Below are positions 1-25,694 of a stretch of 44,344 nucleotides of DNA, piece after piece (within the stretch, counting starts at the first letter, position 1; every line of letters starts with the position of its first letter). This DNA is from Fonticula-like sp. SCN 57-25 (Eukaryota): assembly GCA_001724245.1 (NCBI GenBank), contig MEDX01000680.1, positions 1 to 44,344 of the forward strand, read 5' to 3'. The notes under the pieces were generated by a model. The model was not told the DNA's origin. It saw only the letters and a program-made list of their open reading frames with translations, and searched no databases. Made by a program: the position numbers and the translations under genes.

Positions 1-4
1 CATT

Positions 5-40: not shown

Positions 41-140
41 GCTTTGATTTTTCGGGAATCACGAGTCTCTGAAATTCAATTGTCCAATCAACTCGATCAT
101 AGTGCTGAGACGATTTCCATCGACCATGAAATCAGACGGT

Positions 141-3968: not shown

Positions 3969-4002
3969 CTCAGTCTATTGACACCCTCAGTCTATTGACA
4001 CC
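3969..4002 (+). repeat. Perfect 17-bp tandem duplication inside the right end of the transposon
   Basis: CTCAGTCTATTGACACC at 3969-3985 and 3986-4002. Confidence 0.95.
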
Positions 4003-4024
4003 GAAAAGTCCAAAAATAGAGAAT

Positions 4025-4060
4025 GTGCGAGTGTTACTGGTTTTACTGCCGTCACTCACA
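4025..4060 (-). repeat. Right terminal inverted repeat of the transposon
   Basis: GTGCGagTGTTACTGGTTTTACTGCCGTCACTCACA is the reverse complement of 5-40 with two mismatches. Confidence 0.95.
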
Positions 4061-4120
4061 TATCATAGCTGTTGATGGGTCTGGTGTTTGCCGTTAGGTG
4101 ACAACGGACTCGAACAATAA

Positions 4121-5003
4121 TTACATTCCCTGTATGGGCACTTTATGGAATAGCTCATTTGAGGTTGCTGGTCGCCGAAGATCTGCGCGCCAGTGAAGCC
4201 TTGTAATTTTCAATGGGTACTCATTCCATTGTGTTCGTCGAACCTCGTACGATCCTAATCTGCAGTAGTCTCGGCCGTCGCAAGAGATCTTGTTGTTCAC
4301 AACTGCCGTGAACATTTCTCGCTTTTCGCGTCGCCGGCGTTTGCTTTAAATCGCCTTTCTGCAACGCATCTTGCGGCGTGGTCATTGTCGTACATCAGAG
4401 TTGGAGCTTTAGCCCGTGATCTCCGCAAGGTCATTTTACATTCTGGCTGGACGCTGCCTTCGCGGCCCTGTGCCATGCAATCAATGATTTCAGCGAATTG
4501 TCTATTTGCCCTCCCGATTCATCTTTCTGCCAACGTATTGTTTTGGGAATAATCGTATCTTTGGCACTGGAGCTGGTGCCGATTTTTATTGAGAACGCCG
4601 TCTGGCTTGCTTGCTGTGCCTTTACCTACTTGTCCCGGTTCTCCTTACCGCCGTTGCCCGTCGCGACTTTTCGGTCTGCACTATATAAAGAATGATGCCG
4701 CTGTTCAATGAGCGCCCGGGTATCTGCATAGTGCGCCTGCGTTTTCAGGCGTTACATTGATCGCGATGCGGGCCGCCGTTTTTTTGTTTTCTTCGTCACA
4801 GAGAATCTCACAAAGTCCGCGCTGCGGAGCCATGGCAACATGAGCAAGCTGTTTCTACTGAGCACAGGAGGAACATTTTTTCTTTGCTTAGCCGGCCTGG
4901 AGCCCGGAGAAGAACGTCACATGTAGCAGTTCGCCAGATCTTCTTGACACCCGACATTTCTGACCATTGCCAAGCTCGCGCGCGAGGCGGCCGCCTTCGT
5001 CAT
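4121..5003 (-). pseudogene. Possible highly decayed Tc1/mariner-like transposase remnant
   Basis: Short frameshifted peptides on the minus strand in Tc1-like order: MTKAAASR/SGVKKIWR (HTH-like), RAPGRLSK, NKKTAARIA, QYVGRK, PIENYKASLARR, RRPATSNEL. No intact ORF or TIRs seen. Confidence 0.25.
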
Positions 5004-5395
5004 GCCGTACAATAACATGGCTGGGAGACTACACTTTTCTTGACTTTTGAAAAGCCGGCGCGCGCCTCTGCTGTTTCTTGTCGTCGGCCTTTCCTGTCGT
5101 TTTTCGAGCGTCTACGGAGGATGACGGGCGCCGTGTTTCCACTGCTGTTGGCGCGGTGTTCGACTGTCTCGATGGGCTGTGCCTCTGACGTGCCTACTAT
5201 ATCGCGCGCGCGAACGCTTTTTTAGCCGAGCGACTTTTGCTACACGTTCAGCTCACGTTGCCTTTTGCCGCCCGCTCTTGCCCTCTGAATCGTAGCCAAA
5301 CCGTATGCTTTGTACTTTTCAACTTTATTTCTGTATTCAAGCATCACCTTTCTTGTTTATATATCCCATTTTATCTTTGTATTTGTGCTTTAATG

Positions 5396-6841
5396 CTACA
5401 AGCAATCAAGAATGACCTTTGACCATACGCCCTTGGTCGCCCACGCCTCGCTCACCTTGTCAATGGGGATTCGATGCGGATTGAGGCGACGAATAACAGA
5501 ACTGCACAATTCCGGCTGCTTCTCAAATACAGACAATGCTTCTCCAATGTCGCCACATCGCGAGCTATAGAGTTCAATGTCGCGCTCCAGCAGCGCCCGC
5601 GAAAGTGCGCTCGATTCGGCTTCCTGATCGGGGCGCTGAGGAGCCAAAAGAATAATCCCTCTTGCCCGCACTACTCCCTGGGGAGATTTGCCATTGCTTG
5701 ACCAGTGCGGTGGCCGCACAACGTCATCAAACTCGCCTAATGATCCAATGATGGCGACATCAAACACTCCAAAGATCGTGCCGCTGTTCTCGCCCTGGAG
5801 ATCGCGCAAGGGGGCCGTCACAATGCGCACATTCTGTGGCCAACAATCGACATGAGAAACATGCGCGTGAGGCGACACCCAGACAGATATTATATCTTTG
5901 CTCCTGAGAGGCGCCACGGCAACGTTCTCCCACTGGAATTGTACGCGAGGAAGTGAAAATGATGCCAAGGCGAGCTCGTCCACAACAAACGCCGTCAAAT
6001 TTGCCAAACCAAGAGTACGCTGCCCGGTAGTAGACTTTATATGAACAATTCGTTTGGAAGCCAAGAGCGCCGTTGCGAGCCCCTCGGGCGAGCCCGTCGC
6101 CTCAAAAACCATATCATAAGTACCTTGAGGCACCTCTGCGCTGCTGACCACAGAATCAACACCGAGACGGAGCGCCATTTCGTGCTGACTAGTGTGCCGA
6201 ACGAGTGCGTCAACAGTGAATGGCGAGCCCTTGTTTCTGCTGGCGATGAGCGCAGTCATCAGGAGGGCTCCGAGGCGGCCGACGCCCAGAACGCCGACGC
6301 GTCCTCGGGGGGATCGTACGCGAAGCGCCTGCAGCGAAGCAGCAAAAGGCTCAGCAAACACGGCGGTTTCCGCCGATACAGACACCGGAACAGGGACAAT
6401 GTTGTTGATCGGAGCAAGCACGTAGCGCGCGGCGCCGCCGGGGAGGCGATCAATTCCCAACGTCATGCGATATGGGCACTGCGACGGCAAGCCACGCTCG
6501 CAGAAAGGGCACGAATCAGCCGATCCATGAGAAACATGACCATCATTTATGTCAATGGCCACAAGCGAGCCATCTTCCCTGCGCGCAACTACCTCATGCC
6601 CCGCAATCTGTGGAAGTGGGAACGGCATGCGGTGGAGGGCGAAATCCGTTCCGCACATGCCACACAGAACGCATCGCAACAGCTCATAGCATGAGCCAAG
6701 CGTCAACAAAAGTTCACCATCACGTTCAATGCGCCAGTTTCCATTATCTTCTCTGGAGTACATATAGCTCGCTCGCCTCAGCGACCCATCCGCCAACACC
6801 ACCGTCGCCTCAAAGGCAGCAGCGCGCTTGGTTCCCGCCAT
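5396..6841 (-). CDS. Zn-dependent medium-chain dehydrogenase/reductase (threonine/sorbitol dehydrogenase-like) with extended C-terminal half, 481 aa, intronless
   Basis: Catalytic Zn motifs CGMCGTD and GHE, structural Zn loop CPFC...C, FAEP, NAD-binding GVGRLG, FEATGS, and terminal SSRCGD. Confidence 0.88.
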   Translation of the reverse strand: MAGTKRAAAFEATVVLADGSLRRASYMYSREDNGNWRIERDGELLLTLGSCYELLRCVLCGMCGTDFALHRMPFPLPQIAGHEVVARREDGSLVAIDINDGHVSHGSADSCPFCERGLPSQCPYRMTLGIDRLPGGAARYVLAPINNIVPVPVSVSAETAVFAEPFAASLQALRVRSPRGRVGVLGVGRLGALLMTALIASRNKGSPFTVDALVRHTSQHEMALRLGVDSVVSSAEVPQGTYDMVFEATGSPEGLATALLASKRIVHIKSTTGQRTLGLANLTAFVVDELALASFSLPRVQFQWENVAVAPLRSKDIISVWVSPHAHVSHVDCWPQNVRIVTAPLRDLQGENSGTIFGVFDVAIIGSLGEFDDVVRPPHWSSNGKSPQGVVRARGIILLAPQRPDQEAESSALSRALLERDIELYSSRCGDIGEALSVFEKQPELCSSVIRRLNPHRIPIDKVSEAWATKGVWSKVILDCL

Positions 6842-7705
6842 AATCGAATCTACCCCTGATTCTCGGGTGCCTGTGCGAGAGGAGTCAGCGTCGCAGCGGA
6901 CAAGAATAGAGGAGGCTGGGAGGAGGGATAGCGGCGCGTCTGTACCGTGACGATGAAAGCCTCCTACTCTCCCTGTCAGGTCTGCGTTGCGCCGTTATTG
7001 TGATGGTTTTGTTCCATTTGAGCTCGTGTTTCTGTACCGCAACTGATGGGAATAATGGATGGTGCTGTTACCATGCCGATGATGCCGCCTTGCCGCGCGC
7101 CGGCCCGCCGCTCGGGTTTACGTGTCAGGTGTAGACGTTAAAATTTTTATGAGCGTCATTAATGACGTCTTCTTCGATTTTTCACGTTTGCGGCCACCAT
7201 GATTGGGGCCCGCTCGTCGGCGGCACTCGTCCGAGCCGTCCCAGCCTTGCTTCGGCTTTGCCAACATCACAACGATGACAGGTGAATCATCCGTCAGCTC
7301 TGACGAGCATCAGCGCCGAGCATCAGCATGGGCTTGGAAGGTTTTGTTGTCTTATGTTTATTTGGATTACTGACGTTTTATGCTCGTCCTGACCAACTAT
7401 CGCTGTCCTCTCCTTAGGACGCCTGTCAGCCCCATCCACGCTACAATTTTTTGTGTGAAAAAAGGAACATGTAAATGTATTTGTACTTTTGTTTGGGTTT
7501 TGTGGAAAGCTGCTTTTGTAGTGGGCACGTTGTGTCGTTTGGGAAATCCACTATATGTATTCATACGAGGGTGATGAAACAATACATGAAACTAAATAAT
7601 TTGCAAGCGGCACTGATAGAAAAGTAATGCGACTGCATCACTGATACATGAGTAATGCAACTGCATGTACTCGCTACGCTAGTAACACCTGTTGAACTGA
7701 AATGC

Positions 7706-10700
7706 TCAGATAATTGCCGACGCGAGCTGGTTGCAAATCACCGCAGAGTCTGGTCTGCTCGATGGCACCTCAGCAGACAAGATCGAGTCAATGATGGCCG
7801 CGACCTGCGAGCGCAGCACATCATCATCTGAATCCGGTGTAAAAGAGAGAGTCTGGCCTTCGACAACCAGCTGCGAAATCTTGTCAAGATCAATCGTTGC
7901 CCACGGGACGACGCGAGTGTACATTTCCATAAAGATCACGCCGGCCGCATAAACATCGGCAGCAGGCTCGTCCTCGACCGACACGCTCTCAATACGCTGG
8001 CGATGAACTTCGGGCGCGGCATACCGGAGGGCCTCGCCAGCGATTCTGTTGGGAATCCCTTCGCCAACGGCAATCGCGTTACTCAGATTGCTCAAAACCG
8101 GGGTGGGGTAAACGTCACCAACGCCGGCGGGTTGGATCAAAATGCAGCGAGGCGAAAGAGAGCGATGCGAAAGCTGCATAGAGTGAACGGCACTCAGACC
8201 CGATGCAATGCTAGAGACTAGATGGTGCAGCAGGGATGATTCGATCGTTGTATGGTCACCCGAGTGGATGAGCTGGTTAAGGTTCGACTCGTAGCGGCGG
8301 GTAACAAACGAGCGCGGCACATCCGTATACGCGACGAGCGAAACAATGTTCGGGTGGAACGACAGAGACCACATCAAAGATACTTCGCGATGGAACAATT
8401 CCGTATTCATTTCCGCGTCGAGGTCTGGCTGCTCCTCAAAGTCATACACGTTTGCCTCCTTGGAGCCGACGCGAGAAGCCACCTGGAAATCGAGAATCAT
8501 CGTCTTGCAGCCGCCCTCCGGTTCGCTGGCGTCGAGCAAGGCGCCCGGCTGGATGGTCGTAGCATAATCCACAAGCAGGAAGCCGGGCAGGGCAACCTCC
8601 ATAACAGTGTTTACGATAGTCTTGTCGGCGTGCGACAGGTGCGTCGTTGACTCTGCGTGCTTCATGCTGCCGCGCGAGCGCGCAAGCGTCTGGCGGTACT
8701 CCTTGAGCGACGACAGCGCCTCGGCGCCACCAAATTCGGCCATCTTGTCAGCTGTGCGGCGGCGACGGCGGCGGATGACAACCATGACCACGATCACAAT
8801 TACAATCAACGCCACGACTCCGGCAACACTCGCGGCCGCAATGATGGTACCGTTGACGCCAAGACCGGGGTCCTCCACGATGTTGTCAGTTGTTGACGAT
8901 GTCGTCATCATCAAACGCGCGCCAACCTGCTCCGTGGCATTGTTGTGACCAGCAAGCACGAGAATCTCGTACGTGCGGCCCGACTCTAGACCATCGACCG
9001 TCGCAGAAGCGGCATCACTGGATGCGGTGCCCCACAGAGTAAAGCCATCAGATACGTTGCGCAAAGGGACGACAAGGCGGTAATGGATCTCATAGTACTG
9101 AGCCAGCGCGGACACGCCCCAGCTAAAGGTGAGGGAGTCTGTGGATGCACTACCAAGCTGAAGCGGACCCGGCTGAGAGATGTACGTGGTCACTGGAATG
9201 ATGGCAGCGCCCGGCTCGTTATAGCCCTCGTGCTCGCCGGCCATCACACGCACTGAATAGAGCGTGTTTTGGAACAGGTTGTCAATGGTGAAAGATTCGC
9301 CCTTAAAGTTGATCGCCTGGCCCATGTTGGCAATCACAAAGCTCCCGGTTGAGATAGCCACATCAACGCGATACGTCGTGTTTTCTGTCGCGTTGACCAT
9401 GTTCCACACGAGCGTGATGGAGGTAGATGTCTTTGAGGTCCACCGAAGGTTGGAGATATCAGCCGAGTCGTCGGCCGGCAAAATGTCACATGGGTTGCTG
9501 AACAGTGGTTCCCATGTACCGTCAAACAGGCATGCGCGGGTGGGCGGGCCGGCCGCCGAGACGTTATATCCAGTAGGGCAGGTACCAATCGAGTTGGTGC
9601 TGGGAAGCGCCGATGGGAAAAACACAAGGCCGACCGACTCGCTCGGGCAGTTGTCATAGTGCACGATGCAGGGATTAACAATGGTCGAGTTCCAAATGCC
9701 TGAAACGCCGCATGAGCGACGTGGAGTGCCATCATAGCCGGACAGGCAGCTGCCAATTGCCACCTCACCTGCGCGCGTCTGCTGCCACTGAGCGTTATCA
9801 AGCTGATTACTGGCACAGAAAATCTCGGTGCAACCGTTGGTGATATCTCCCCAATTGCCCGTTCCGTCGCAAACGCGAGTAGGCGAGCCCGAGTAGCCTG
9901 CATTGCACGTTCCAGTCACAGATGCAAACGCATCCGATTCGCTCCACAGAGCATTCCCGTCCTCAACGGCAGGGCACTTGATAAGCACGCAGGGGTTGAC
10001 AATTGATCCCCAACCGCCGTCGAGCCCGCACAAGCGAGACGGGCTGCCAAGGTAGCCGCTATTGCAAACACCGGCTGCACTGCTGCCGGCTGAGGTCAAC
10101 GGCCAATCAGCATTGCCTGCGGCCGTGGGAGGGCATTGCAGCGTCGTGCATGTGCCGCTGATTGTGCCCCATGCGCCATTCAGTAGGCAAGAACGAGTGG
10201 GAGAGCCCGAGGAGCCGGAAGGGCAGGTGCCGACCACGTCAAAAGAGCCCGCTTCAACCGAGCCCCACGATCCGAGGGAGCCGTCGTCCACAGCAAAGCA
10301 CATCTTTTTCGTGCACGGATTTGACACCGCTGAATACAGACCGTCGGCTGAGCAGTTGCGCAGGGGCGTTCCTTGCCAGCCCTCGACGCATTCGCCAGGG
10401 ACACCAGTCGTCATGGAGTTTGCCGTCGGCCACAGTGCGTTGTTAAACTCGACCGACATACACCGATTACGCGTGCATGATCCGGTTGCGGTGTCCCAGA
10501 CGCCATTGCCAAGACACGCACGCACGGGCGTTTGCGTCGATGAATAGCCTGTAACACAGACACCAGAAGCAGAAGAACCGGCGGCCGTCGAAGCCCATAT
10601 AATGTTGTCAATCGTCTCGGCCGCGCATGATACCAACGAACACGAGCCCGAAATAACGCCCCAGACTCCCGCGATAGAGCAGGTGCGCAGAACGTTGCCT

Positions 10701-13700
10701 GCGTAGCCGCTCTTGCAAGTGCCAGACACAGTAGTCCCGCCGAGTGCCTCGGGCCAATCCGACGTATCGGCGGATGTCGCGGCGCACTTCTGCTGCGTGC
10801 ACGGGTCGGTTACCGATGAAGTCCACTGGCCGTTAATGTCGCATGCGCGCTTCGGAGAACCGGTGTATCCCACATGGCACGAGCCGGTTGCCTCGGTCCC
10901 TGCCTTGGTCGAGGGCCACGACTGGTGGCTGCCGTCGTCGCTCACAGCCAAGCAAAAGATCTCTTGGCAAAGTGGAGACGGTGTCGACCAAGAAGCCGAT
11001 AGCGAGCACGATCTCTGAGTGGTGCCGGTGTATCCAGCGTTGCATGTTCCTGTCGTAGAAAATCCGGCCTGCAACGATTCTGGCCATGTAGCACCGAACG
11101 GCGCGTACGATCCGGACTCGTGGGTGCAATACAGCGGCACGCACGGGTCCATAATGACGGAATCCCAAGTGCCATCCTCGCGGCACAGGCGGGACGGCAT
11201 TATCGCAGTGCTGTAACCGGCAACGCAGACGCCATACTCGGTACTTCCGGCTGAACTTGAAGGCCAGTTGGCGTGAGCGTCGTTCACAAGTGCAGGGCAG
11301 GGGTCGGTGCTGCATGGGTTGACTACGTCTGACCACGTCCCATTGTAGAAGCAGTCGCGGGCGGGTAATCCCGAGGTTCCCATCGAACAGGTTCCCGGTA
11401 CAGACGTTGATCCAGCATTGGCTTCCGCCCAAGAGGCCTTGGCGATTGGGTCGGAAATGGGCGCGCACTTTACCTGCTCACAGGAACCAGTAACTCCGCC
11501 CCAGCTACCACTGATATCGCAGGCGCGCTGAGGCGTCCCAGAGAATCCAAGTTCGCAAATTCCCATAACAACGTTTGTTCCGGCGGCAGCGGATTCCCAT
11601 GTAACATGGTTGGACTCGATATGGGGGCAGCGAATTTCTGGACAGAAAATATTGAGCCAGGGAAACGCGACATAAACAGCGGAACGTACGGGTGCACGGG
11701 TTGGTAATGGCGCCGAACGTTCCGTCGGCGCTGCAAGGGCGCGTCGGCGAGCCTGTCCATCCGGCAACGCACGAGCCAGCCGCGATGGTCAGCGAGTCTG
11801 ATTCAACCCACTCGGCGTTACTGTCGGTGATTGCACCACACTTGATTCCTGTACGACGAATTAGAGGCGACAACAAACAGACGGAAACGTACGAGTGCAT
11901 TGCTGTGATAGGGGGGACCAGTTGCCGTAGAAATCACAGTCACGAATTGCCAGGCCTGAATAGCCAGCTGTGCAATTTGCAGAGACATTGGTGGTGCCGG
12001 CCGCAGTACTCGGCCATTCCGCGTTATTGAGGGTGGCAGGCGAACAAAAGATTTCTATACGGGCAAACGTCAGTGCACGATCCTTTGTTGGAGACACGCA
12101 CGGGTGCATGGGTTGGTCACCGTGGACGCCCATTGACCATCGGCTTCGCATTGGCGCGTTGGGGTACCAGAAAAGCCCGCAACGCAGGTACCCTGTGCAA
12201 CAGTGTTCGACGGTGTGTTCACCGGCCATATAGCGTTAAGAGATGTCTCGGCGCCGCAGTGATGACCTGCAAAATTAGATATAAGCAAAAAATACAGCTC
12301 ACAATATTAAAAGTTGCATACGGGTGCACGACGGGTGCACAGTAGTTGACCAACTACCACTCAGCTCGCAGGTGCGCTTAGGCGACCCATAGTAGCCCGA
12401 CACGCAGACGCCAGTCGCAATATCTCCAGAGTTCGTGACAGCCCAGTCCGCCAGCTCATAGGCAAGCTCGTTCGCGCACTTGAGCTCTGCACCAAGCGTC
12501 AACATATATTTGGCACATCACGACAAGGCGCGCGTACGAACGCAGGAGCCAACCATGGCGGCAAAGGTGCCATCACTTTGACAGAGACGCGTTGGGGTAC
12601 CCGCCCAGCCCGCTTCACACTGACCGGCCGAGGTGGCAAATGACAACGCGGTCGGCCAGGTGACGTGATTAGCATTATCCGAGTACCCAGTGCATGACCT
12701 CTCTGAAACGAAAATCTTAAGTGGTTTATAATAAATCATGAGGCGCGCACGTGTACACGGCTGGGTGACAGAACCCCAAGTGCCGGCCGCGCTGCAGGTG
12801 CATTGCGGGCTTCCCGAGTAGCCATCCGCACATGATCCTGTGGCGACCTCCAAGCTGTCGGTCAATGGAAAAGATGCGGTGCCAATCGTGGTCGCTTGGC
12901 ACACATTACCTATTCGAAGTCAGTGAGCTACGCATGAGACACGCGACGAGGACGCACGGTCGCAGCTGTTGGACACGGTTGACCACACTCCGTTTACAGT
13001 ACACTCCCTAGACGGCGTGCCTTCGCCGCTGTATCCGCTCAAGCAAGTTCCCGTTGCAGTGACACCGGCATTCGTGATAGGGAAATGGGCATTACCAGAA
13101 GAGCCCGCAGCGCATGTGAGTTCTAGAAAGGATACCGCATGTTGAATATAACAAACTAAACCATGGCAATACTTCACAAAAGCTGCGCACTTGTACAGGG
13201 GCTAGATACGGCGCCCCACTGCGCGTTTAAGCACGCGGCGGTAGGCGAGCCGCCGTACGTCGAGAGGCACGTGCCCGTGCCAACGGCTGCGTGAGGGGTT
13301 GTTGGGAAATTGGCATTGCCCATGGTGGTAGCCGCACAGGAGCTCACTAATGGATACGGCGCGTGAGAGAGGGTCCAAAGGAGAGCGGGGTAATACCGGT
13401 GCAAGACGCGCCGCTGCCCATGTATCCACTATTGCACACGCACATATTGTTTGCGTTGCAGCTGGCGTTAACGTCGCAGGTTGTGTAGTCAAACTTGATA
13501 TAGGGCTTGTTGTTCTTACCATGCCAGCACGACATTTGGCCGTTCTGGTTATGGGTCACGCGCAACGAGGCCTGTAAAGCAGGCTCACATCAGTTTCAAC
13601 AACCATCCGCGGTACCCGTACCGCAGATGCGCTTTGGCGAACTGCAGCATTCAACATGGAGGCGGATAAGGTAATGGAATACCATCTAATAAAAGCACAT

Positions 13701-14408
13701 CACTCGTAAACAACAGCCCTTCTGCAGAGAATGTACTTACGTTCCGCTGTACGAGGTGTAGGTAGATTGTGTCCTTTGCCCCAGGTGGCTCGACATCGAA
13801 GGCTGGTTGTTCCAATAAAGGTTCGTATGCACCCTGCCACGGCATAAGTGGGAGGAATTAAAAGAAAATCAAGTGCCGCACCATGTGGTTGGAGGAACCT
13901 CTGTGACGACGTTCATTCCGCTAGTCGGCTTGCGGCAAATTTCGATGCCAAAGATCTTGACGGTGTAATTGTTCATGTAGAGCATCGGGGTTCCACTTGC
14001 ACAGAAGCGAGAGGGAGTAGGCTGGCATCATTGTTAAGCACCAAGCATACAAGCAAGTACTTGCGAACGTACAGCCGCTGCTGCAAAATTGAAGTGCATG
14101 TACCCCACCATGGCCGGAGAATTGCTGGCTCCCATCGTGTAAATGTAGCCCTCGCTCCCTTTTGAGCATCGTCAGCTACCATAAACAGCTCTACATGAGA
14201 ACCGAACCTGCTTCATATTTCGAGTTTGCCGATGACTTTTGCGTGCTCGCGCCATTGATGAATGTGGCCGTGTTTGCGTTTTGGCCCACCGCGACTGTTA
14301 AAAAAAAAAGGTGAGAGATGAGGTGTGAGCCACGGAGAGGCGGCCGCGCGTACGAGCAGGCAGCAAGAGGAGGATGAGGGCCACAACCCCTCTCTTTACT
14401 TTCCCCAT
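7706..14408 (-). CDS. Receptor pseudokinase A: signal peptide, DNRLRE/CBM96-like domain, EGF, 21 HormR-like Cys repeats, 2 FN3, TM, inactive TKL-like kinase; 16 exons
   Basis: ATG at 14408 (MGKVKRGVVALILLLLPA). GT-AG introns at 14295-14353, 14159-14207, 14022-14072, 13834-13881, 13686-13740, 13572-13621, 13347-13396, 13123-13190, 12910-12957, 12703-12750, 12487-12537, 12267-12321, 12055-12101, 11849-11892 and 11638-11689 give one continuous frame. TM helix is followed by RRRRRR; kinase has HRSL and NLS in place of HRDL and DFG. Confidence 0.88.
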
Positions 14409-14989
14409 CGCGGCCAGGGTGATCAAAAGATCTCCGCAGGGAGTGGAGTGAAGAGCAGGGCAGGGCGCGCGATTCTTTCTTTCCAAACGGAGACTGCCCA
14501 ATAAGGTAGGTTGTGCTCAGGGGCAGTGATCGGATGCCCAATCGTGTTTGGTGGGGCTATTTTTCCAGTCAGCTCCGACCAATTAATATTTAGAGAAGAA
14601 TGTTAAGGCTCCCGCGAGGATGAGCGTGAAAGAGGCCGCAAAAACAGGGGTGGACTCTGCTGCCCCTGGCGTTTCAGTTTGGCGGTTGGATAAACGCTCG
14701 TGCTACAGCCGTGCGGTTTCGTCGGCACGATGACGCGCTGAATGCGCGTGATGCTACTTCGTAATCGACCCTTCATGCCGCTGTGGCAGCAATAGAATGT
14801 GACATCAGCCCGGACCAAAACGAACATACTGAGAAAAAACACGGGAACCCATACACTTAAAACGTCTGGCTGGCAGTGCAAAACAACATAGTCAACATTG
14901 TACAAAAATGTGGATTTATTTTTACAGTAATCATCGTGTTTAAAATCGGAATGATACAACTCGCTATTCACGTTCGACAAACGTGCGCT

Positions 14990-15787
14990 CTAAAGTCCAT
15001 TTGCCTTGAAAAACTGTGTCAGAATATTGAGCACCACGTCGGTCTGTTCGCGGTGCGGCACGTGCCCACACTTTTGCAGCAAGTGCATCTCGCCGCGGCC
15101 AAGGTCGCAGTACATCTGCGGCTGCTTTGGGGAGCCAAACTCATCCAGGTCGCCGTGAATGACGAGGAGCGGGCTCTTAATACCGGGCAGGTCACCAGCC
15201 ACCGTCCACGACAAGTACCTCGGGTCGAGCCACGTGTCTGTCCAAGCGCGGACAACCCATTCCGCTTTCTCGCCGTGATACCTTTTCAGCCGCTCGAGCT
15301 GCTGGGGAACGGCAAAGTTGGCTTTAGCCTCCCTGACGCCTTGCAAAGTGCGCTCCTCAACAAACGCCTGCCCAGACTCGGTAACTACCGCGATGCACGA
15401 ATCAGCAAGGTTGCTCGCAGCGACGGCCGCCATCGGTCCACCGACGCTGTGGCCAAAGAGAACAAACTTGGACGCCTTGAAAGAGTCGAGGACGGCCGGC
15501 AGAAAGTGAGACGACTCATCCTGAATAAAGGTAAGGGGCATGTCCTCCAGACGAGCATCAGAGCGGCCGTAGCCGAGCCGGTCATAGGCGATGACCTTGC
15601 GACCCGCCGCGTGAGCAAGCTGCTCGGGAAAGTCGCGCCACAGCTCAACGCATCCCAATGAGTCGTGCAGCAGCACAATGGGCTCGGCCTTGGTCAGCTG
15701 CACTGGATTCCACTCCCTTGCAAAAAGCTTGCCTTGCCGAACCGGGACAAAGCGGTCGACCACCGCGGCGAGCCGACGAGCAGCCAT
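14990..15787 (-). CDS. Alpha/beta-fold hydrolase, bacterial style, 265 aa, intronless
   Basis: LLHDSLG, YDRLGYGRSD, nucleophile elbow GHSVGG, IHGDLDEFG (acid) and CGHVPH (His). Confidence 0.92.
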   Translation of the reverse strand: MAARRLAAVVDRFVPVRQGKLFAREWNPVQLTKAEPIVLLHDSLGCVELWRDFPEQLAHAAGRKVIAYDRLGYGRSDARLEDMPLTFIQDESSHFLPAVLDSFKASKFVLFGHSVGGPMAAVAASNLADSCIAVVTESGQAFVEERTLQGVREAKANFAVPQQLERLKRYHGEKAEWVVRAWTDTWLDPRYLSWTVAGDLPGIKSPLLVIHGDLDEFGSPKQPQMYCDLGRGEMHLLQKCGHVPHREQTDVVLNILTQFFKANGL

Positions 15788-16294
15788 TCTTGTACAATCC
15801 AGGGTGGAATCTTACCTGTCGGGCGGCATGCTTACCAATCGAAATAACCATCAAAGACTGCGAAGGATGTCGGCCTGTGTTCCACGCAAAAAGTAAAAGG
15901 ACCCTATACCGGCCCGCTCGTAAAATGCCCGGAGGACCGTATACAGGCCCGCTCATTCGCGCGCGTGATCTAGAGACAACTATTAACGTCAACGCCTATC
16001 CCACCTCATCATGTGCCGCAGTGCTTCATGTATAACCATGTATATTGAGCTTTTTGTTAAAAGGGGCAGTTTGCATGATGACGCAAGAAAATAGCAAACA
16101 GGTTTATTGAGTACTGGGTTAATATATGGATGGAAGCGCTTCTTAGCGATCCCGCTGGCTACATAGTACAAACGAGGGAGCAACCTGGAACAAAACAAAA
16201 CCAATGGGAGTGAACAACAAGGTGTCAGCGCGACATATGCTATAATCTAAACTTGAGTGTAAACACATGCGAAGAGAGGAAAGAAAGAGGACGC

Positions 16295-19200
16295 CTACTG
16301 GGCGGAGAGCTCAGAGAGAGACGCCAGCTTGCTGTTGATTTCCACAATGGTGGGGCGAGCGGACACGTCGAGCGTAAAGATGGCGCTGACGAGGTCGGCC
16401 AGCCACACGCGCGCGTCGTCGGTGCGCGGCACCTGAAGGAACTCTCCGGCGGTCACCTTGCGCTCAATCTCGTCGGGCGACACGCCGCGGAACGGCACCT
16501 GGCGAGCGGCAATCTCCCAGAAGATGACGCCGGCGGCATAAACGTCGATGGCCATGTCGTTGCCCAGGGTCCACTCGGCCGAGGGCTCGCGCAGCTGGGC
16601 AAAGGCCTCGGGCGCGAGGTTGGCCACGAAAGCCGACGAGAGCGTGACAGGGCGCAGCACGTCGCTCGAGGTGTGTGCGCTCGAAAAGTCGCTGAGGACG
16701 GGCGTCGGGTAGTGATCGCCCGCGGCGGGCGCCTGCAGGAGAATGTTGACCGAGCTCAGGTTGCAGTGCGCGACCTGCATCGAGTGCGCAGCGTTGAGGC
16801 CAGAAGCGACGCCATTCACAAGGTGGAACACGTAGTCGGGCTCGAGAGGAGACGAGCTGTCCGCGCCAGTGTGCAGCATGGCATTAAGGCTCGTCGAGTA
16901 CAGGCGCGTCACAATGGTGAGCGGCTCATCAGTGTAGCCGACGAGGGAGGCCACGTTCGGGTGGAACGAGAGCGACCACATGAGAGCGACCTCGTTGTGG
17001 AAGACCTCGGTGACCATCTCCTCGGAAAGACCAGCGTCGTTGACAAAGTGGCGAACAGCAATGTCGTTGGTGCCGATGCGCAGCGCGACAGCCGCGTCAA
17101 GCAGGGTGGCCTTCTCAACACGCTTGGAGTCGCCGGCAAGGCCCTTGGGCTGGATCGCTTGGTTGAACTCGAGACGCAGGAAGCCGGGGAGGGCAACCTC
17201 GAGCACGGTGTTCACAATCGTCTGGTCAGCGCCGGAAAGGTGGGTGGTCGAGTCAGCGTGGCGCATGCTGCCGCGCGAGTTGGACAGCGTCTTGCGGTAC
17301 TCGCGCAGCGATGCGAGCGCGTCAGAGCCACCAAACGAGTCCAGGTTTTCCTCGGTAACGCGGCGGCGGCGGCGAATGATTACAATCACCATAACGAGGA
17401 TGATGATGCAAACAACCACAGCGCCCGCAGTTGCACCAGCAATAATGCTTCCCTGGACGCCGAGACTGGGATCCTCCACGATATTGTCGGTCGACGACTT
17501 GGTGGTCGTCGTCAGGCGAGCACCGACCTGCTCCGTCTCGTTGTTGCGGCCCGCCAGGATCAACACCTCGTAGCGGCGGCCTTCCTCCAGATCAGAGATG
17601 GTCAGCTCGCCGGCGCTCGCATCCACGACCTGGCTAAGGACAAAGCCGTCGCTCGCATCGCGCGTGGCCGTCGTGGCGTTAAGAATGCGATAATATGACT
17701 CGTAGTACTGGGCGAGCGGCGACGCGCTCCACGTGAGGGTCAGCGAGTCAGAGGTGGACGCAGACAGCGTGAGACCGCCGGCCGGGGGAATGTACGTCTT
17801 GGTGGAAATGACGGCACCGGCGAGGTCGTTGTAGGCGCCGTCGCGTCCGTTTGCAGTTACGCGGAACTGGAAGACCGTGTCGGGGAACAGACCAAGCACG
17901 GAAATGGTACGGTTCGAAAAACCGATGGCCTGGCCAAAGTTGGCAATGGTAAAGGAGCCAGCACCCATCGCAATCTCCACGCGGAAAGTCGAGTTGAGCG
18001 TCGTGTTGAACACATCCCACTCAAGGTCAACGGACGTTGAAGTCTTGCTCACCCAAGTAAGGTTGACGATGTTACCATTGTTCTCGACAGGGATCAAGAC
18101 GCAGGGATTGGAAAAGGCCTCCTCCCAGGTACCGTTGGCATAGCACGCGCGGGACGGCGGGCCATCGGGCGAAATTTCGTAGCCGGTAGGGCAGTTGCCG
18201 GTGCTGTTGGATCCGGGGGAAGCGCGAGGGAAGTACGTCATGCCAACGGTGGCGGCGGGGCAGTCCTCGTACAGAATGACGCACGGGTTGCTGATAGGAC
18301 CCCACGTGCCATCCAGCGTGCAGTTACGAACGGGCGTTCCAGTGAAGCCACTCACGCACTCGCCGACAGCAGTGAAGCCGGCCTGAGTGGTGCTCCACTG
18401 AGCAGACTCGGCGAGCACCTCGGCGCAACGCAACACCTCGCAAGGGTCCGAAATAGCACCCCACTGGCCGTCGGCGTCGCAGGTACGGCTCGGCGACCCA
18501 AAGTAGCCCGGGTTGCAGACGCCGTCAGTGGGAGAGCCAGAGAGCGCCTCGGGCCACTGTGCAAACTCTTCCTCGACTGGCGGGCACTTGTTCTGAACGC
18601 AGCCGTTGGTGACAGGGCCCCAGGAACCATCAAGCTCGCAGGGGCGCGACGGGCTACCCGAGAAGCCCACCTTGCAAGTGCCCGACGCGGACGAACCGGC
18701 GGCGGTAGCGGGCCAGTTGGCGTTCTCAAAGTCACCCGCGGAGCAGGTGAGCTGCGAGCAGGTGCCAACAATCTCGGACCAGGCGCCGCTGATGGAGCAG
18801 TCGCGCGTGATAGTTCCCGTCGAGCCGGCCGGGCAGACGCCGGCCACTCCGCCCGTGCCAGCATCGGCAGCGCTCCACGAACCAAACGCGCCCTCGTCAA
18901 CGGCGGCGCACTGAATACGCTGGCAAGGATGGTCAACTTCGGTCGAGTAGACGCCAAGCGCCGAGCAGTTGCGCGAGGGCGTGCCGAACCAGCCCGCAAG
19001 GCACGTCCCGGAGACTCCATCGGTCATCGAATCGGCAGCGGGCCACGAAGCATGAAGGTAATCAGCGGCAGCGCCACACTTGAGACGGTCACACGATCCG
19101 GAAGGAGTGCCCCATACGGCACCGGCGGAGCACGGGCGAGTAGGCGTGGCCGAAGGAGAGCCGTATCCAACATCGCACGAACCCGACGCGACCGAACCGG

Positions 19201-22200
19201 CGTTGGTTGACGGCCAGTTGATATTATCAGTGTGGTCGGCCGGGCAGCCCAGCAGGACGCATGTGCCGCTAATGGAACCCCAAAGGCCATCGATAGAGCA
19301 AGTGCGTGTGACGGTGCCATAGTAGCCATCAACGCAGGCACCGGTGGCAGTCGAACCGCCAACCGTTTCGTTCCAGCGAGCATTGCCGTTCTGCTCAGCG
19401 AGGCAGCGCTTCTTGGTGCAGGGGTCATTCACCGTCTCGCTCCACTGACCGGTAACCAGGCACGCGCGGGTCGGGGCACCTTCATAGCCAGTTGCGCAAA
19501 TGCCGGTGGCCGTCTGACTGGCAACGGTAGCGGGCCACGAGGTAATACCGTCGCTGGGAAGCGCAGGACACTGAATGGCCTGGCACAAAGGCGAAGGAGT
19601 CCCCCAAACGCCGTCGAGAGAACACGAGCGTGAGGTGGTTCCAGTAAAGCCAGGGTTGCATTCGCCGGAAGCCGTCAAGCCAGCCTGGACGGACGCGGGC
19701 CACTGCGCGTTGAACGAATCAGACGGGGAAGGAGTGGTGCAGTAAATAGGCTCGCAAGGATTTGTGATCTCGTTGCTCCACTTGCCGTCAAAGGTGCATT
19801 CGCGCTGCGGAGGCAGGTCGCTCCGATACCCAGGAACGCATTCTCCTGTGACAATCTCGCTAACTCCGGGCGCAGCCGGCCAGTTGGCGTTCTTGTCATT
19901 GCTGAGAGCAGTGCAAGGGATGTACGAGCACGGGTTGGACGTCGCCGACCACGTGCCGTTGAAGAAGCAATCACGAGCAGGCCGGCCGTTGGTACCCGCG
20001 TAGCACTCGCCTTCCACGCCCGACGACCCAGCATTCGCCGCGGGGAAGGTGGCCATCGCATCGGCATCATCGGCGGAAGAGCAGGTAAGCTGAACGCAAT
20101 CGCCCGAGATGGGGGTCCAAATGCCAGTAATGGTGCAATCACGAGAAGGAGAACCCGCAAAGCCAGGAGAGCAAGCGCCCGCAACGCCCGACGAGCCAGC
20201 ATTGGTCGCGGGCCAGACAGCATCGCCCTCAGTGCTGACAGGGCACTGGATGTGAACGCAAGGGTTCACGATAGCACTGAACGTCCCGTCCGCCTGGCAG
20301 GTGCGCGAAGGCGATCCCGTGAAGCCAGCATCGCAGGTGCCAGAAGCCGTGTTGAACGAGTCCGTCTCGGGCCAAGCCGCGTTACCCTCAGAGATGGTAG
20401 GGCACTTGACACGAGCACACAGCGTCTTGGGAGTGGCCCAGTTACCATAAAAGTCACAGTCGCGAACAGCAACGCCAGAGTAACCAGGTTCACAGGCGCC
20501 ATTCACATTCGAAGAGCCGGCCAGAGTAAGGCTCCATTGCGCGTTGAACGTGAGCTCGGCGGGACATTCATACGGAAGACAGGGGTTCGACACTTCAGTC
20601 TCCCATGTACCCGCAGCACTGCACTTGAGAGATGGGCTTCCAAAGTACCCAGCCACGCATGTTCCAACGGCGATGGTATCCGACAGCGTGTTGGCAGGCC
20701 AGTTTGCATTCGCGAACGTGTAGGCAGGGCAAACGTTGCGGACGCAAGACGGCGAAACGGTCGCTGACCACTCGCCTGAAATCTGACAGGCGCGCTGCGG
20801 GGTGCCCGAGTATCCTGAAACGCACGTGCCCGTTGCGACAGTCCCCGCGTTGGCAGAAGGCCACTGGGCGTTGCCAAATGAAGGATCCCCGGGGCAAACC
20901 TTGGGGACGCACGGATTGCTAATGGTACCCCATGCGCCCATCGCGGTACACTCACGAGTCGGGGTCCCCTGGAAGCCGGCAGCACAGGTACCCGTCGCAG
21001 TAGAAAGAGCGTTCGTCTGCGGCCACTGGACGTTGTTCGCAAGGTCATTGAAGGCAGAGCATACAATCCTTGTGCACGCATTGGAGACGGGGCCCCACAC
21101 TCCGGACGCAGAGCAAGTGCTTGATGGGCTTCCGCTGTAACCCGCATCGCAGGTGCCAGTGGCGGGAGTATTGCTGGGGGTGGAGGGGAAAGTGGCCGTG
21201 TCAATCTTCTGCTGCGAGCAATAAATGCGCGTGCAGGTTGCCGTAGGTGCCGCCCACACTCCGTTACCGTTGCAGGCGCGAGCTCCCGAACCGGACCATC
21301 CACTTTGGCAGGTACCAGTGGCAGAGGTACCGGCATTGGTAACCGGGAACCATGTGCCGTCGACAGTTTCGGCAGCGCATGTGAGCATGATACAGGGGCG
21401 CGAAACAGCGCCCCAAACGCCGTTGGTACAGGTAGCCGTAGGCGCACCCCCATTAGGCCCGTAATTGCTTAGGCAAACTCCACTAGAAGTAGAGCCGCTG
21501 GACGTGTAGGGGAAGTTGGCATTGCCCATCGCGGTGGCCGGGCACGCGCTGACAGCGCAAGAAATGCCATTACCAGAGTACCCGGGCTTGCAAACGCAAT
21601 TTCCGCTGACGCAGTTGGCGTTCACGTCGCAAGTCGAGTAATCGAACGCAATGTACGAGCGGTACGTCCACCAGTACGAATTATAGGTTTCGTAGCAGGA
21701 TTGACTGCTTAACGGAGAACGGAAGCGAATGCCGGTCTATAACAAAATATTAGAACAGGCCGATAAATAGTCCACCAACGCACGCTATACTTGTTCTGAC
21801 GAACCGCGAGGTTGACGATGTCAGGGCTAATATTCATGTGGAACCAGCTAGCAGGCGATGGTGAGATTTTACTGCAGCCGGACATTGCCGATAACGCACT
21901 AATCACTGGTGTAGGTCATGTAATTTACGGTCGTCGAGGCAAGGGAAGAGCCGAGCGACGGCTGATTATTCCAGGTGATCCCACTTGCCGACCTGCAAAG
22001 AAAATGGTGAGTAAATAAAAAGCAAGACAGCGCAAAAGCAAAACGTACCAAGAAGAAGTAGGAGCATCCACTTGCCACTGCGAATAGGCGGTCGGAGCGT
22101 AGCATACATCATGGTAATTTACATAGAAACGAGGCTGCCCGCTTGCGCAAAAGCGGTTTGCATCAGGTGCGACTCCTGAAAAGTCATACTGCTGGTACGC

Positions 22201-22516
22201 GACCATGGTCGGACCGGAACCATTACCCCACACGTAAACCAGTCCGCGATAAAGGACGGCTAGAAAAACAAACGAATACGTCAGGCAAGGCAATCTTGTT
22301 ATTGAGAACGCACCCGAGTTGTAATTAGTGGCGGGGTTCGTACTCCAAGTGGTAGCCGAGGTAATGGCATATGCCCGGTTGTTGTACTGGGCCGAGCCTA
22401 GACCATCCAAGCAAACGTTAGCAAGAGGGCAGAACCGTGTCACCGCACGCACAGAGAGAAACGAGCCCTGCCACAAGCAGCGCCTTGAGCAAGGCGCCGC
22501 CCCTGTGAACGGCCAT
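16295..22516 (-). CDS. Receptor pseudokinase B, paralog of A with identical domain order; 6 exons
   Basis: ATG at 22516 (MAVHRGGALLKALLVAGLVSLCSAQ). Introns at 22398-22452, 22260-22313, 21993-22048, 21848-21899 and 21737-21783, then one 5.4 kb exon (21736-16295) with EGF, 21 Cys repeats, 2 FN3, TM + RRRRR and a kinase with IAVR, HCNL, DFS. Confidence 0.9.
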
Positions 22517-23297
22517 CTTTCCCCGTCTTCGTGCCAAAGGCAAAATCACCCTAAATCGAAGGAAGGGAAGGAAAGAGAACTGAAGGGAAATCGACCAATC
22601 ACACACCGCAGCATATTTCCAATTTGGAAAAAGGGACCTTCCAGCCCTTCTCCAGAAGGCCCTCGAGGTTTGCTTATCAACCCCTGCCATCTATTTTTGT
22701 GGGGCTTGGCTTGGGGTAGGTTTTGAGTGGGGCGAATTGTGCCAAACAAAAATAAACATCCTCGGATGGTTGCCGGAGGCGAGAATTCGCTGCAGCATCT
22801 CGTGAACGAGCTTGGCCAACTTTTTGTTTTGCTGTGTAAGGACAGGTCCTGGCACTTTTTTTTTCTTTGGAAATCACAATCCCCGCATGACCTTTAAAGT
22901 AGGGAAATGGGCCGAGCGAATGTCGGCCAAAAAATGGAAAGAGAAAATATGAGCGCTGCCTAGGTTCGCCCATTGGGCAAAACACAAAATTCTTTGCTCG
23001 TAGTCGCTTTTCCACCGCACCACCCGACCGCCTTTTGTTGGCCGAGATCCTATAAGATGCACAGCGCGCATTCCCCTCTGTTCGGGCGCTGATGGTCCGC
23101 CCCAGGGCCATTGCCAAAAAGACCGCTCGCGCTTCAGAGTCCATTACCGCAAGCCATGCCATGACGCCCACATAGGCCGCTCCGCGAGGAATATCTTGAG
23201 TGCATGTACACCGACCGCCACCGTGCCACGTCGGCGCTCCAATAGTCAACCTTGCTCCGTTGCTCGGTCACGTGCCCACGCTCGCGAGTTTCGAGCG

Positions 23298-25694
23298 ATG
23301 CTACGTGCAAAGCTTCTGCGACCGCGGGATTCGCCCGTCTTCCACGTCTTTGGCGCCAACACTGGCGTAGGCAAGACGGTGGCGTCCGCTGGCCTTCTTC
23401 GCCGTGCCTCGCTCCCACCCTCTTCCCTTCGCGTGTCGTATCTAAAACCGGTCCAGACGGGATTTCCCTCGGACAGCGATGCTCGCCTGGTACAGAGCCT
23501 CGCGCCTCGGGCGACTGTCGCGCAGCTCTTTGCGTACCGCGAGGCCGTTGGGCCGCACCTAGCCGTCCAATTGGAGAACAGTGGCGCCGGCAGCTCGCCG
23601 CCAGTGATCCCATCCGACGACCAAGTGCGGCAGCGGATTGACGCGCATCTTGTTGCGCACGATTCCGCGTCGCAGTCCGCCAGCCTTCTTTTAGTTGAGA
23701 CGGCCGGCGGCGTGCTCAGCCCCGGTATTGCAAACACGGCTCTTCAGGTGGATGTTTTGCGCCCGTTTCGCTTTCCCGTTCTCCTTGTCGGTGACGCGCG
23801 GCTCGGCGGCATCTCGACGACGCTCTCGGCGTACGAGTCGCTGCGCCTGCGCGGAATGGACGTTGCCTCTATTTGCTTCTTCAGCGACAATGGCGCCCTC
23901 GACAACGCGCGCGCAGTAGAGCGCCACGTGGATGCCACGACGCGAGTTGTTTCCCTGGACGGAATCCCTGCGGAGGGCGCGCTCGGGCCGTGGATGGACG
24001 AGCGCGAGGGCCAATTTGGCGAGCTCCTTTCTTCCCTCCTCGCATTCCACGGCGCACAGGTTGACGCGCGGGAGAAGCTCGCGGCATCAACGCGCGAAAC
24101 TGTCTGGTGGCCGTTCACGCAGCATAGAACGGTGCGCAACGTCATGTCGATCGACAGCGCGTACGGCGACTACTACGTCGGCCAAGTGTGCGACGAAACC
24201 AACGCGCCAGTGGTCAACAATGCGCCGCAGTACGTCCTGCTTTTGTTTTTGTTTTGCTTGCGATACTCACCGCTGCAGACACGTATACGACGCTTGCGGC
24301 TCGTGGTGGACACAGGGCGTCGGCCACGGCAACCCGACCATGGTCAAGGCACGCCCCCTCTCCTTCATTCAGTGTGCTGACCTTGCTATTTGCTAGGACA
24401 TTGCTTATGCGGCGGGCCGCTATGGGCACCTCATCTTTCCCGAAGTGGCGCATGCGCCAGCGACCGCGCTTGCCGAGCGCGCGCTGCGCCTCGCCGGCGG
24501 CGCGTGGGCGTCGCGGGTCTTCTTTTCGGACAACGGCTCCGCCGCCATTGAGATTGCGCTCAAGATGGCCATGCAGCTGTACGCCCGCCGGCGCGGCCTT
24601 TCGCCGAGCGACGCTGTCGACTTTGAGACGGTTGCGCTGTCCAACTCGTACCATGGCGACACCCTGGGCGCCATGAACATCTCAAGCCCAACGGCATTCA
24701 ACAAGTCGTTCAAGTGGTGCGCCGCGCCGGACCGCTTTTCGTGTCGCTGACTTTGTTTCGCAGGTACAAGGGCAGCTCGCTGTGGCTGGACGCGCCGACC
24801 TTCTCGCTGCGTGACGGCCTGTACCACGTCGTGCAGCCCGATGACGGCGCCGCCACCGCGCTGGGCGCGACCTTTGAGTCGGTGCACAGCAGCGAGCGCG
24901 ACACGTCACCCCTCGCTGACGCGTACGCGCGCCGCATTGACGCTGCGCTGGACGGCGCGCTGGCCGCCGGCCGCCACCTCGCCGCGCTCGTCATGGAGCC
25001 CGTCGTGCACGGCGCCAACGGCATGGAAGGCGTCGACCCGCTCTTCCAGCGCCTCCTCATCCGCGCTTGCCGTCGCCGAGGCATCGTCATTATCCTCGAC
25101 GAGATCTTTGTCGGCATGTACCGCCTCGGCCCAGCCAGCGCCGCGCTCGCGTACCTCCGCGAGTCGCCCGACATTGCGACGTTTGCAAAGCTCCTCTCGG
25201 GCGGGTCGCTCTCCATCGCGCTGACGCTCGCGTCCGCCGACGTCTTTGACTCGTTCCTCGGCGAGGCCAAGCGCGAGGCGCTCCTGCACGGGCACTCGTA
25301 CACGGCCAACCCCGTTGCGTGCGCCGCCGCCGTCAGCGCCCTCGACGCCTACCCGCACGCCGAGCTCTGGCAGCGCGACGGCGTCGCTGATCTTTTCCCG
25401 GAAAACACGGTCGCCGAAATCTCGCGCCTCGAGGCGAGCGTCCGCGTCGTTGCAAAGGGGTCGCTGCTTGCCGTCGAGCTCGCCAGCGAAAAGGGACCGG
25501 CGGCGAACGCGCCGGGGTACGGCAGCGGGCGCATCCCACGCGTCGAGCGCGTCCTCGCTAGGCTGCTCGAGGACGGCGTCTTTGCGCGACCGCTCGGGCG
25601 CACCATCTACATCATGGGGACGCCTACGACGAGTGCCGCAGAGGGGGCGCGGCTCGCAAGCGCGCTCCTTAGCGCCGTAGCCAAGGAAACATAG
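23298..25694 (+). CDS. BIO3-BIO1: Bifunctional dethiobiotin synthetase / 7,8-diaminopelargonate aminotransferase (BioD-BioA fusion)
   Basis: BioD motifs GANTGVGKT, YLKPVQTG, ETAGGVLSP, GDARLGGIS; BioA motifs WWPFTQH, SWWTQG, SDNGS, YHGDTLGA, DEIFVG, FAKLLSGG, LHGHSYTA. Introns 24230-24278, 24349-24396 (GC-AG) and 24717-24763. Confidence 0.95.

Follow-up and report, generated by a model that had tools for sequence, protein, structure and literature searches.

Two giant genes for surface receptors, here called A and B, lie on the minus strand of contig MEDX01000680.1 from the assembly of Fonticula-like sp. SCN 57-25 (GCA_001724245.1). The contig, a stretch of 44,344 nucleotides, is referred to below as the window. 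Each protein carries 21 four-cysteine modules of sushi-like fold, followed by two FN3 domains, a single transmembrane (TM) helix and a kinase-like domain in which catalytic motifs have been lost. We propose that A and B are type-I surface receptors, most likely non-catalytic co-receptors.

Domain architecture and the 21-module arrays

The two proteins share one domain order: a signal peptide, a head of ∼180 residues, an EGF-like module, 21 four-Cys modules, two FN3 domains, a TM helix, a poly-Arg stretch and a kinase fold, directly after which the protein ends. According to Pfam, fn3 occurs in two stretches per protein and Pkinase matches with E-values of 1e-15 and 2e-14. The EGF-like module matched EGF_3 below the cut-off (E 1e-4 to 9e-4). 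An earlier note, made from the sequence of the window alone, had listed these parts and placed the module array on a single-pass, kinase-type receptor. All of them are present in both genes, the EGF match being weak, and the N-terminal domain, which it had sized at ∼170 residues, measures ∼180. When compared by sequence with solved structures, the FN3 region found generic fibronectin fragments as its best matches and gave no Eph signal.

The note had also counted 21 repeats in each gene. A regular expression and a 42-module hidden Markov model (HMM) agreed on exactly this number, with both arrays starting at residue 237. In the alignment of the 42 modules, the four Cys are invariant (42/42) and four Gly positions show conservation of at least 90%; module 3 of A has one extra Cys. 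The one-to-one collinearity that had been described was likewise recovered. Of the 21 rows and 21 columns of the A/B comparison, 14 rows and 15 columns had their best match in the module of the same rank, the mean identity was 53% on the diagonal versus 40% off it, and the marks RDCDFYGNW, RDCF.NGTW and TPSPLC stand in modules 7, 10 and 12, respectively, of both proteins. Since same-rank modules match best, duplication must have taken in the whole array as a unit.

A and B are old paralogues that share 48% identity overall. Both are under purifying selection: the proportion of nonsynonymous differences (pN) is 0.36 and that of synonymous differences (pS) 0.70 over the whole proteins, and pN is below pS in every region, values that are only indicative as the synonymous sites are saturated. 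This constraint bears on the idea that A and B are adhesion or spacing molecules, which would attach the cell to prey, substrate or kin cells and keep the dead kinase as a mere anchor that does not signal. A long stalk of rigid modules would suit that role, as would the loss of the catalytic motifs and the existence of a Blastocystis protein that has 21 modules with a TM helix and lacks a kinase. Yet the kinase-like part is itself constrained (pN 0.40 vs pS 0.68), and so is the juxtamembrane motif just before it (0.21 vs 0.60), which is conserved in all nine aligned members of the family (9/9). We consider a purely adhesive function unlikely.

Sequence profile and fold of the modules

The earlier note described the repeats as HormR-like and proposed to compare HRM (PF02793) with Sushi (PF00084) in a profile search. 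HRM was the better sequence model. Over the whole proteins, HRM matched B with an E-value of 2e-41, in 14 stretches, and A with 3.5e-23 (140.6 and 82.2 bits; curated cut-off 26.2), as compared to 9e-17 and 3e-12 for Sushi (61.7 and 47.2 bits; cut-off 20.7). Searched singly, the modules of B had HRM as their best family in 14 of 21 cases, Ephrin_CRD in 3 and Sushi in 2, with no match for the remaining 2; two of the 21 exceeded the HRM cut-off on their own (29.5 and 31.2 bits). Matches of Ephrin_CRD to the modules of A and B were weak. At ∼50 residues and four Cys, the modules are smaller than the HormR domain.

To compare folds, module 20 of B (18281-18427, 49 residues) was modelled with AlphaFold2 using the 42 modules as the alignment. 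The model was all-beta, with a predicted local distance difference test (pLDDT) score of 97. In a VIA-align comparison with 48,161 chains, four chains reached Z ≥5, all of them Eph ectodomains. Residues 201-260 of EphA2 aligned with a Z of 8.0, a root-mean-square deviation of 1.1 Å and 35% identity over 49 of 49 residues, and EphB2 aligned with a Z of 7.4. Ectodomains of the HormR/class-B G-protein-coupled receptor (GPCR) type scored 4.0-4.8 (GPR126 HormR, 4.8; VIPR2, 4.7) and complement CCP domains 3.1-4.0. Consistent with this ranking, EphA2 or EphA4 occupied ranks 1-9 in Foldseek (TMq 0.80-0.87), followed by class-B GPCR ectodomains and the HormR of BAI3; the CCP domains of CD46 and C2 were at TMq ∼0.5. 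No Foldseek match of the module reached E ≤0.001, because the domain is short.

According to the model, the modules belong to the sushi/HormR/Eph-CRD fold class. They are closest in shape to the sushi sub-domain of Eph receptors and closest in sequence profile to HRM. The term HormR-like therefore describes their best Pfam sequence model and not the nearest fold, and the outcome that the note had named as refuting its reading, repeats that model as Sushi or as another fold, turned out to be half true: the nearest solved domain is an Eph sushi sub-domain, and complement CCP domains rank below HormR.

If the modules were true HormR domains, the stalk might, in the manner of class-B GPCR ectodomains, bind ligands that resemble peptide hormones. 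Besides the HRM scores and the 14 single modules, the fold matches lend this some weight, as they include the HormR domains of BAI3, GPR126 and latrophilin and many class-B GPCR ectodomains (Z 3.5-4.8). Class-B GPCR ectodomains possess six conserved Cys and an N-terminal helix. By contrast, the modules of A and B have four Cys in 42 of 42 cases and an all-beta model that contains no such helix. Moreover, few modules pass the HRM cut-off alone, the best HormR-type Z of 4.8 falls short of the 8.0 of the Eph sushi sub-domain, and a Pfam scan of A and B detected neither GAIN nor any 7TM family in proteins that each have a single TM helix. A series of 21 near-uniform copies would also be more in keeping with a spacer than with as many hormone sites. 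Overall, a hormone-binding stalk of true HormR domains is quite unlikely.

That A and B simply join a kinase to an ordinary complement-type CCP/Sushi array, in the style of factor H or SVEP1, is very unlikely: the Sushi E-values, the Sushi-type pattern of four Cys and a Trp in the 42-module alignment and the matches of SVEP1-like animal proteins to the array (E 9e-43 and weaker) agree with it, but Sushi is the best family of only 2 of the 21 modules, and CCP domains (Z 3.1-4.0, TMq ∼0.5) fall below the Eph sushi sub-domain (Z 8.0, TMq 0.84-0.87).

Kinase-like domains

Searched by sequence against solved structures, the kinase domain of B had CTR1 (E 6e-11), MLKL, ZAK, B-Raf, MLK1 and KSR as its best relatives. 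An active relative of the family, P0014, matched CTR1 with E 1.5e-18, IRAK4 with 1e-17 and EphB1 with only 2e-12. From these matches, the kinase domains of A and B are assigned to the tyrosine-kinase-like (TKL) type.

Motifs were read from an alignment of nine family members, namely A, B and seven relatives. The active relatives carry a Gly-rich loop, VA(I/V/L)K, HRD(I/L)K..N and DFG. In A, the Gly-loop is lost, the β3 Lys is Tyr, HRD has become HRS and DFG has become NLS; the Asn of the catalytic loop is lost as well. In B, the Gly-loop is also lost, the β3 Lys is Arg, HRD has become HCN and DFG has become DFS, and the catalytic-loop Asn, the Asp of DFG, the αC Glu and the APE motif are kept. 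Two close relatives, P0004 and P0005, have kept HRD and the Lys and lost the Gly-loop and DFG. As neither protein retains a Gly-loop, a β3 Lys, a catalytic Asp or a complete DFG, both are predicted pseudokinases. The kinase fold reported in the earlier note is thus present, as the Pfam match attests; that its catalytic motifs are absent, making it a predicted TKL pseudokinase, had not been noted.

The wider family was sampled in 80 metagenome loci together with the window. The 12 key positions were all aligned in 57 matches, of which 49 are intact, 3 have a single Gly→Ser substitution and 5 are degenerate, the latter being A, B and three loci from one assembly (L001, L047 and L055). Since most family matches are intact, the loss of motifs is specific to the sub-group of A and B. 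That the two domains are atypical but active enzymes is highly improbable: the residues retained by B would fit such an activity, but both proteins lack the Gly-rich loop, the β3 Lys and the catalytic Asp, in A the Asp of DFG and the Asn of the catalytic loop are gone as well, and 49 of the 57 fully aligned matches keep every motif.

Head domain

The heads of A and B are split by introns and were searched as exon fragments. A 30-residue exon fragment of the B head matched the carbohydrate-binding module (CBM) family CBM96 (PF24517) with E 3e-4 and 21.0 bits, below the cut-off of 26. The related protein L034 contains three heads, two of which matched the same part of the CBM96 profile, again below the cut-off (E 0.026 and 0.032; 14.8 and 14.5 bits). 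No exon fragment of the window heads matched Ephrin_lbd in Pfam. A search of seven head exon fragments against NCBIfam returned nothing relevant; a cytochrome b559 model was hit once, at chance level (E 0.023), and a 115-residue read-through piece of the B head scored at most 0.81 in a protein atlas search and was assigned to no family.

We modelled the third head and EGF-like module of L034 from seven sequences; exon fragments of the window were left out, as they misaligned. The relative that served as source is 27% identical over the aligned stretch. The model was a beta-sandwich with a pLDDT of 77. In VIA-align, prodomains of the TGF-beta family ranked at the top (Z 4.7-5.0), and an alginate-binding CBM and a chondroitin-sulfate-binding CBM aligned with Z of 4.6 and 4.3, respectively. 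Foldseek found nothing above a TM of 0.3, and the 50 best VIA-align rows contained no chain of an Eph ligand-binding domain. The founding paper of CBM96 reportedly described an alginate-specific module. The head is possibly a CBM96-like glycan binder; we take these matches as a hint of a lectin-like head, not as a finding.

A protist receptor-kinase family

Word-indexed searches retrieved 6 relatives when run with the C-terminal part and 25 with the array; of the 25, 17 carried HRM and 7 a kinase. An exhaustive search of 1.84 billion representatives with the segment from module 21 to the C-terminus yielded 352 proteins with E ≤1e-10, 41 of them with E ≤1e-30. We scanned 24 of the 150 listed matches of this search, mainly the longer ones, with Pfam: 19 had a kinase, 12 fn3 and a kinase, 4 VSP/furin-like repeats and 1 HRM/Ephrin_CRD. 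In P0006-P0008, P0154, P0155, P0202 and P0207, VSP/furin-like repeats are mounted on the FN3-TM-kinase core.

The number of modules, counted with the 42-module HMM, varies across the family. Members of the VSP type have 1 module, beside the FN3 pair; there are 16 in L034, 17 in P0020, no fewer than 21 in P0014 and no fewer than 30 in P0010. The claim that stalk length is conserved accordingly holds for the A/B pair and fails among the relatives. The L034 protein is encoded by an uninterrupted open reading frame (ORF) of at least 3871 residues (2-11614, plus strand) on a metagenome contig of 70% G+C. It consists of three cassettes of head plus EGF-like module, VSP/furin-like Cys repeats in a long series, 16 modules, two FN3 domains, a TM helix and an intact kinase. 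The head-EGF cassette recurs in relatives. We place A and B in a protist receptor-kinase family in which a TKL kinase, a TM helix, two FN3 domains and one sushi-like module form the constant core, with outer parts that differ between members and are made of VSP/furin-like Cys repeats or of sushi-like arrays.

The sole named relative of the array among the relatives found was a hypothetical protein of the stramenopile Blastocystis sp. (P0015), with 21 modules, a C-terminal TM helix, 32% identity and an E-value of 1e-155; no kinase domain was detected in it. This protein takes HRM-like arrays beyond the opisthokonts. Two metagenome loci each contain two family kinase domains on the same strand, ∼9 kb apart (L017, 766-1707 and 10682-11641; L020, 769-1710 and 10682-11641), so tandem receptor genes occur elsewhere in the family too.

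Locus and gene models

The features of the locus are collected in Table 1. The gene models are predictions guided by three criteria: an open frame, introns that run GT..AG over 44-68 nt, and sequence conserved in both A and B. The bounds given for the pair in the earlier note, from the ATG of B to the stop codon of A, were correct. Its term tandem pair is apt as regards the shared orientation; the genes are not adjacent, as the ORF of an alpha/beta hydrolase intervenes.

Table 1. Coordinates of receptor genes A and B, their domains and the intervening gene, in positions of the window.
Feature	Position	Strand	Details
Gene A	14408→7706	minus	16 exons, 1975 aa; stop codon ends at 7706
Gene A exons 1-6	14408-14354, 14294-14208, 14158-14073, 14021-13882, 13833-13741, 13685-13622	minus	
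Gene A exons 7-11	13571-13397, 13346-13191, 13122-12958, 12909-12751, 12702-12538	minus	
Gene A exons 12-16	12486-12322, 12266-12102, 12054-11893, 11848-11690, 11637-7706	minus	
A head	13479-14353	minus	counterpart of B head
A EGF-like module	13401-13478	minus	counterpart of B EGF-like module
A module array	9488..13338	minus	aa 237-1382; 21 modules; introns at borders of modules 1-8
A two FN3 domains	8849-9487	minus	Pfam fn3
A TM helix	8774-8848	minus	then six Arg, 8756-8773; direct sequence reading
A juxtamembrane motif and kinase-like domain	7709-8611	minus	counterpart of B
Gene B	22516→16295	minus	6 exons, 1985 aa; ATG at 22516
Gene B exons	22516-22453, 22397-22314, 22259-22049, 21992-21900, 21847-21784, 21736-16295	minus	
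B head	21632..22452	minus	aa ∼23-207; spliced from exons 2-6; predicted beta-sandwich; A/B conservation
B EGF-like module	21557..21631	minus	aa 208-232; five Cys; weak EGF_3 match
B module array	18101..21544	minus	aa 237-1384; 21 modules; linkers of 4-6 residues
B two FN3 domains	17450..18100	minus	Pfam fn3
B TM helix	17375-17449	minus	then five Arg, 17360-17374; direct sequence reading
B juxtamembrane motif and kinase-like domain, predicted TKL type	16298..17212	minus	Pfam Pkinase; motifs degenerate
Alpha/beta hydrolase	14990-15787	minus	265 aa; between A and B, outside the receptor pair; Pfam Abhydrolase_1, E 7e-20

The two genes differ in exon structure. Gene B consists of a 5.4-kb exon (16295-21736) and five small exons 5' of it; its five introns, of 47-56 nt, all lie within the head domain, and the module array is intron-free. 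In gene A, 15 exons come before the last one, which measures 3.9 kb (7706-11637). In A, modules 1-8 are encoded by one exon each, of 156-165 nt, multiples of 3 with phase 1-1, and the phase-1 borders fall two residues past the last Cys of the module. Between 11638 and 13396, gene A has nine introns, from the EGF/module 1 border through the module 8/9 border. All nine start with GT and measure 44-68 nt; eight of them start GT-(A/G)-(C/T)-G-(C/T) and one GTATTA. Gene B has none of these module-bounding introns, which were either lost or never gained.

Contigs of a strain that is ∼2% diverged provided natural variation. None of the 12 listed indels falls inside a predicted exon of A or B, and three indels whose length is not a multiple of 3 fall inside the predicted A introns 12267-12321 and 13572-13621. 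A contig of 2001 nt over the B array showed 45 substitutions and no gaps. This variation is independent support for the gene models of A and B.

Some contigs of other runs in Logan jump ∼8.6-8.8 kb from a position in one gene to the matching position in the other (8784/17511, 9694/18456 and 11702/20310), with only 20-27 nt on one side. The jumps are probably assembly cross-links between the paralogues and not real deletions.

Host and neighbouring genes

The window has a G+C content of 51-63%, and many of its genes are of eukaryote type and have short introns. The only run that contained all sampled words of the window was a bioreactor metagenome. A neighbouring gene for cystathionine beta-synthase is 62-67% identical to homologues of early-diverging fungi, dictyostelids and Capsaspora. 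In a tree of 26 rows, it fell outside the fungal clade, in no settled order with metagenome rows, Capsaspora and Amoebozoa; the host is therefore treated as an unplaced non-fungal eukaryote. Judged by these sequences, it probably belongs to the assemblage of fungi, animals and amoebae.

Two consecutive ORFs on the plus strand (23196-25694), one dethiobiotin-synthetase-like (AAA_26) and the other a class-III aminotransferase, look like one spliced, fused biotin-synthesis gene. Fused biotin-synthesis genes are known in plants and fungi. On the minus strand, an 819-residue ORF (1273-3732) matched only DUF7869 (E 3e-7), and a 646-residue ORF (33316-35256) matched no Pfam family at E ≤1e-5. In the alpha/beta-hydrolase gene, the variant strain has a 4-base deletion near the predicted start (15781), and the true start may differ.

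Discussion

The reading of A and B as co-receptors entails a mechanism in three parts. The array of 21 modules would form a disulfide-locked rod or spacer, keeping the head away from the membrane by a distance that the usual size of such modules puts at tens of nanometres. The head would bind an external ligand. In the cytoplasm, the pseudokinase would signal non-catalytically: it would either pair with a relative that is catalytically active or act as a scaffold for one. Signalling of this kind is known from HER3 and KSR and from EphB6 and EphA10, which are kinase-dead. The domain order, the fold class of the modules, the motif loss and purifying selection are established by the analysis; the ligand, the length of the stalk and the partner kinase are the parts of this scheme that we infer.

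Several points weigh against the co-receptor reading. The active relatives that could serve as partners come from other organisms, and the pairing is proposed by analogy. The Asn, DFG Asp and αC Glu kept by B leave room for nucleotide binding and even for atypical catalysis. The assignment of the head is weak, combining Pfam matches that are all below the cut-off with a model from a relative of 27% identity whose best Z, 5.0, is to TGF-beta-family prodomains. The N-terminal exons of both genes are predictions, the saturation of synonymous sites limits what pN and pS can say, and the fold matches of the module include none that is significant by Foldseek E-value.

The architecture can be set beside several known systems. 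Eph receptors share with A and B a beta-sandwich head of ∼180 residues, a sushi module, an EGF-like module, two FN3 domains, a single TM helix and a kinase fold, and the Eph family too has kinase-dead members, EphB6 and EphA10. By contrast, Eph receptors have one sushi module in place of 21, with the EGF-like module after it rather than before, and a tyrosine kinase and a SAM domain, whereas A and B have a TKL-like kinase (CTR1, IRAK4, Raf) and no SAM by Pfam. There was also no signal of the Eph ligand-binding domain in the head, either in the Pfam searches of exon fragments or in the model of the relative. As order, copy number, kinase group and the absence of SAM all differ, we do not claim membership of the Eph family for A and B. 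The cysteine-rich region of Eph receptors arose on the metazoan stem, according to PMC6485061.

Adhesion and secretin-class GPCRs resemble A and B in the best Pfam model of the modules, HRM, and in a related fold class. They carry HRM as a single copy beside GAIN and 7TM domains, whereas A and B carry 21 copies, of four Cys and ∼50 residues, on single-pass proteins. In PMC12716839, HRM is described as largely holozoan, except for 5-6 uncharacterised membrane proteins of Fonticula alba that are not GPCRs. SVEP1, factor H and CR1 have tandem four-Cys modules of ∼50-60 residues with short linkers and significant sequence similarity to those of A and B. They have no kinase and a weaker fold match (Z 3.1-4.0), and the WP..T..G motif in the first half of the A and B modules is HRM-like and unlike CCP arrays.

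Transmembrane kinases of the Entamoeba type are protist proteins with VSP-like, Cys-rich ectodomain repeats. Relatives of A and B similarly have VSP/furin-like repeats, on the FN3-TM-kinase core of the family; in A and B, sushi-like arrays replace the VSP repeats and the kinases are predicted to be dead. HER3, KSR, MLKL and the pseudokinase receptor-like kinases of plants have, as A and B have, lost the catalytic Asp and/or the β3 Lys and kept the fold, and two of them, MLKL and KSR, rank high among the solved structures that match the B kinase. The ectodomains and lineages of receptor pseudokinases are not homologous to those of A and B. A term search of the main text of a survey of protist transmembrane kinases (PMC10463195) found no mention of HRM, sushi or pseudokinase, and our literature searches for a giant sushi-stalk pseudokinase receptor found no description. 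A and B thus belong to a known kind, the receptor kinases and pseudokinases, with an architecture for which we found no published account.

A further idea, which we regard as doubtful, is that the Eph-type cassette of sushi, (EGF), FN3, FN3, TM and kinase is older or wider than Metazoa, and that the Eph cysteine-rich region and HormR descend from one family of stalk modules in non-animal receptor kinases. If so, the host lineage and Blastocystis would both carry the ancestral module family, and the metazoan-stem origin of the Eph cysteine-rich region (PMC6485061) and the holozoan origin of HRM (PMC12716839) would need revision. Transfer between lineages is the alternative to an ancient cassette.

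In A and B, the Eph-CRD/HormR fold class serves as the repeating stalk unit of giant receptors of an uncultured eukaryote, and the Blastocystis array is comparable. With their relatives, A and B form a comparison set for the origin of animal signalling modules. The contrast between a module-per-exon A and an intron-free B array bears on how such arrays grow, and the family as a whole offers a natural experiment in which active and dead kinases are borne on one receptor scaffold.

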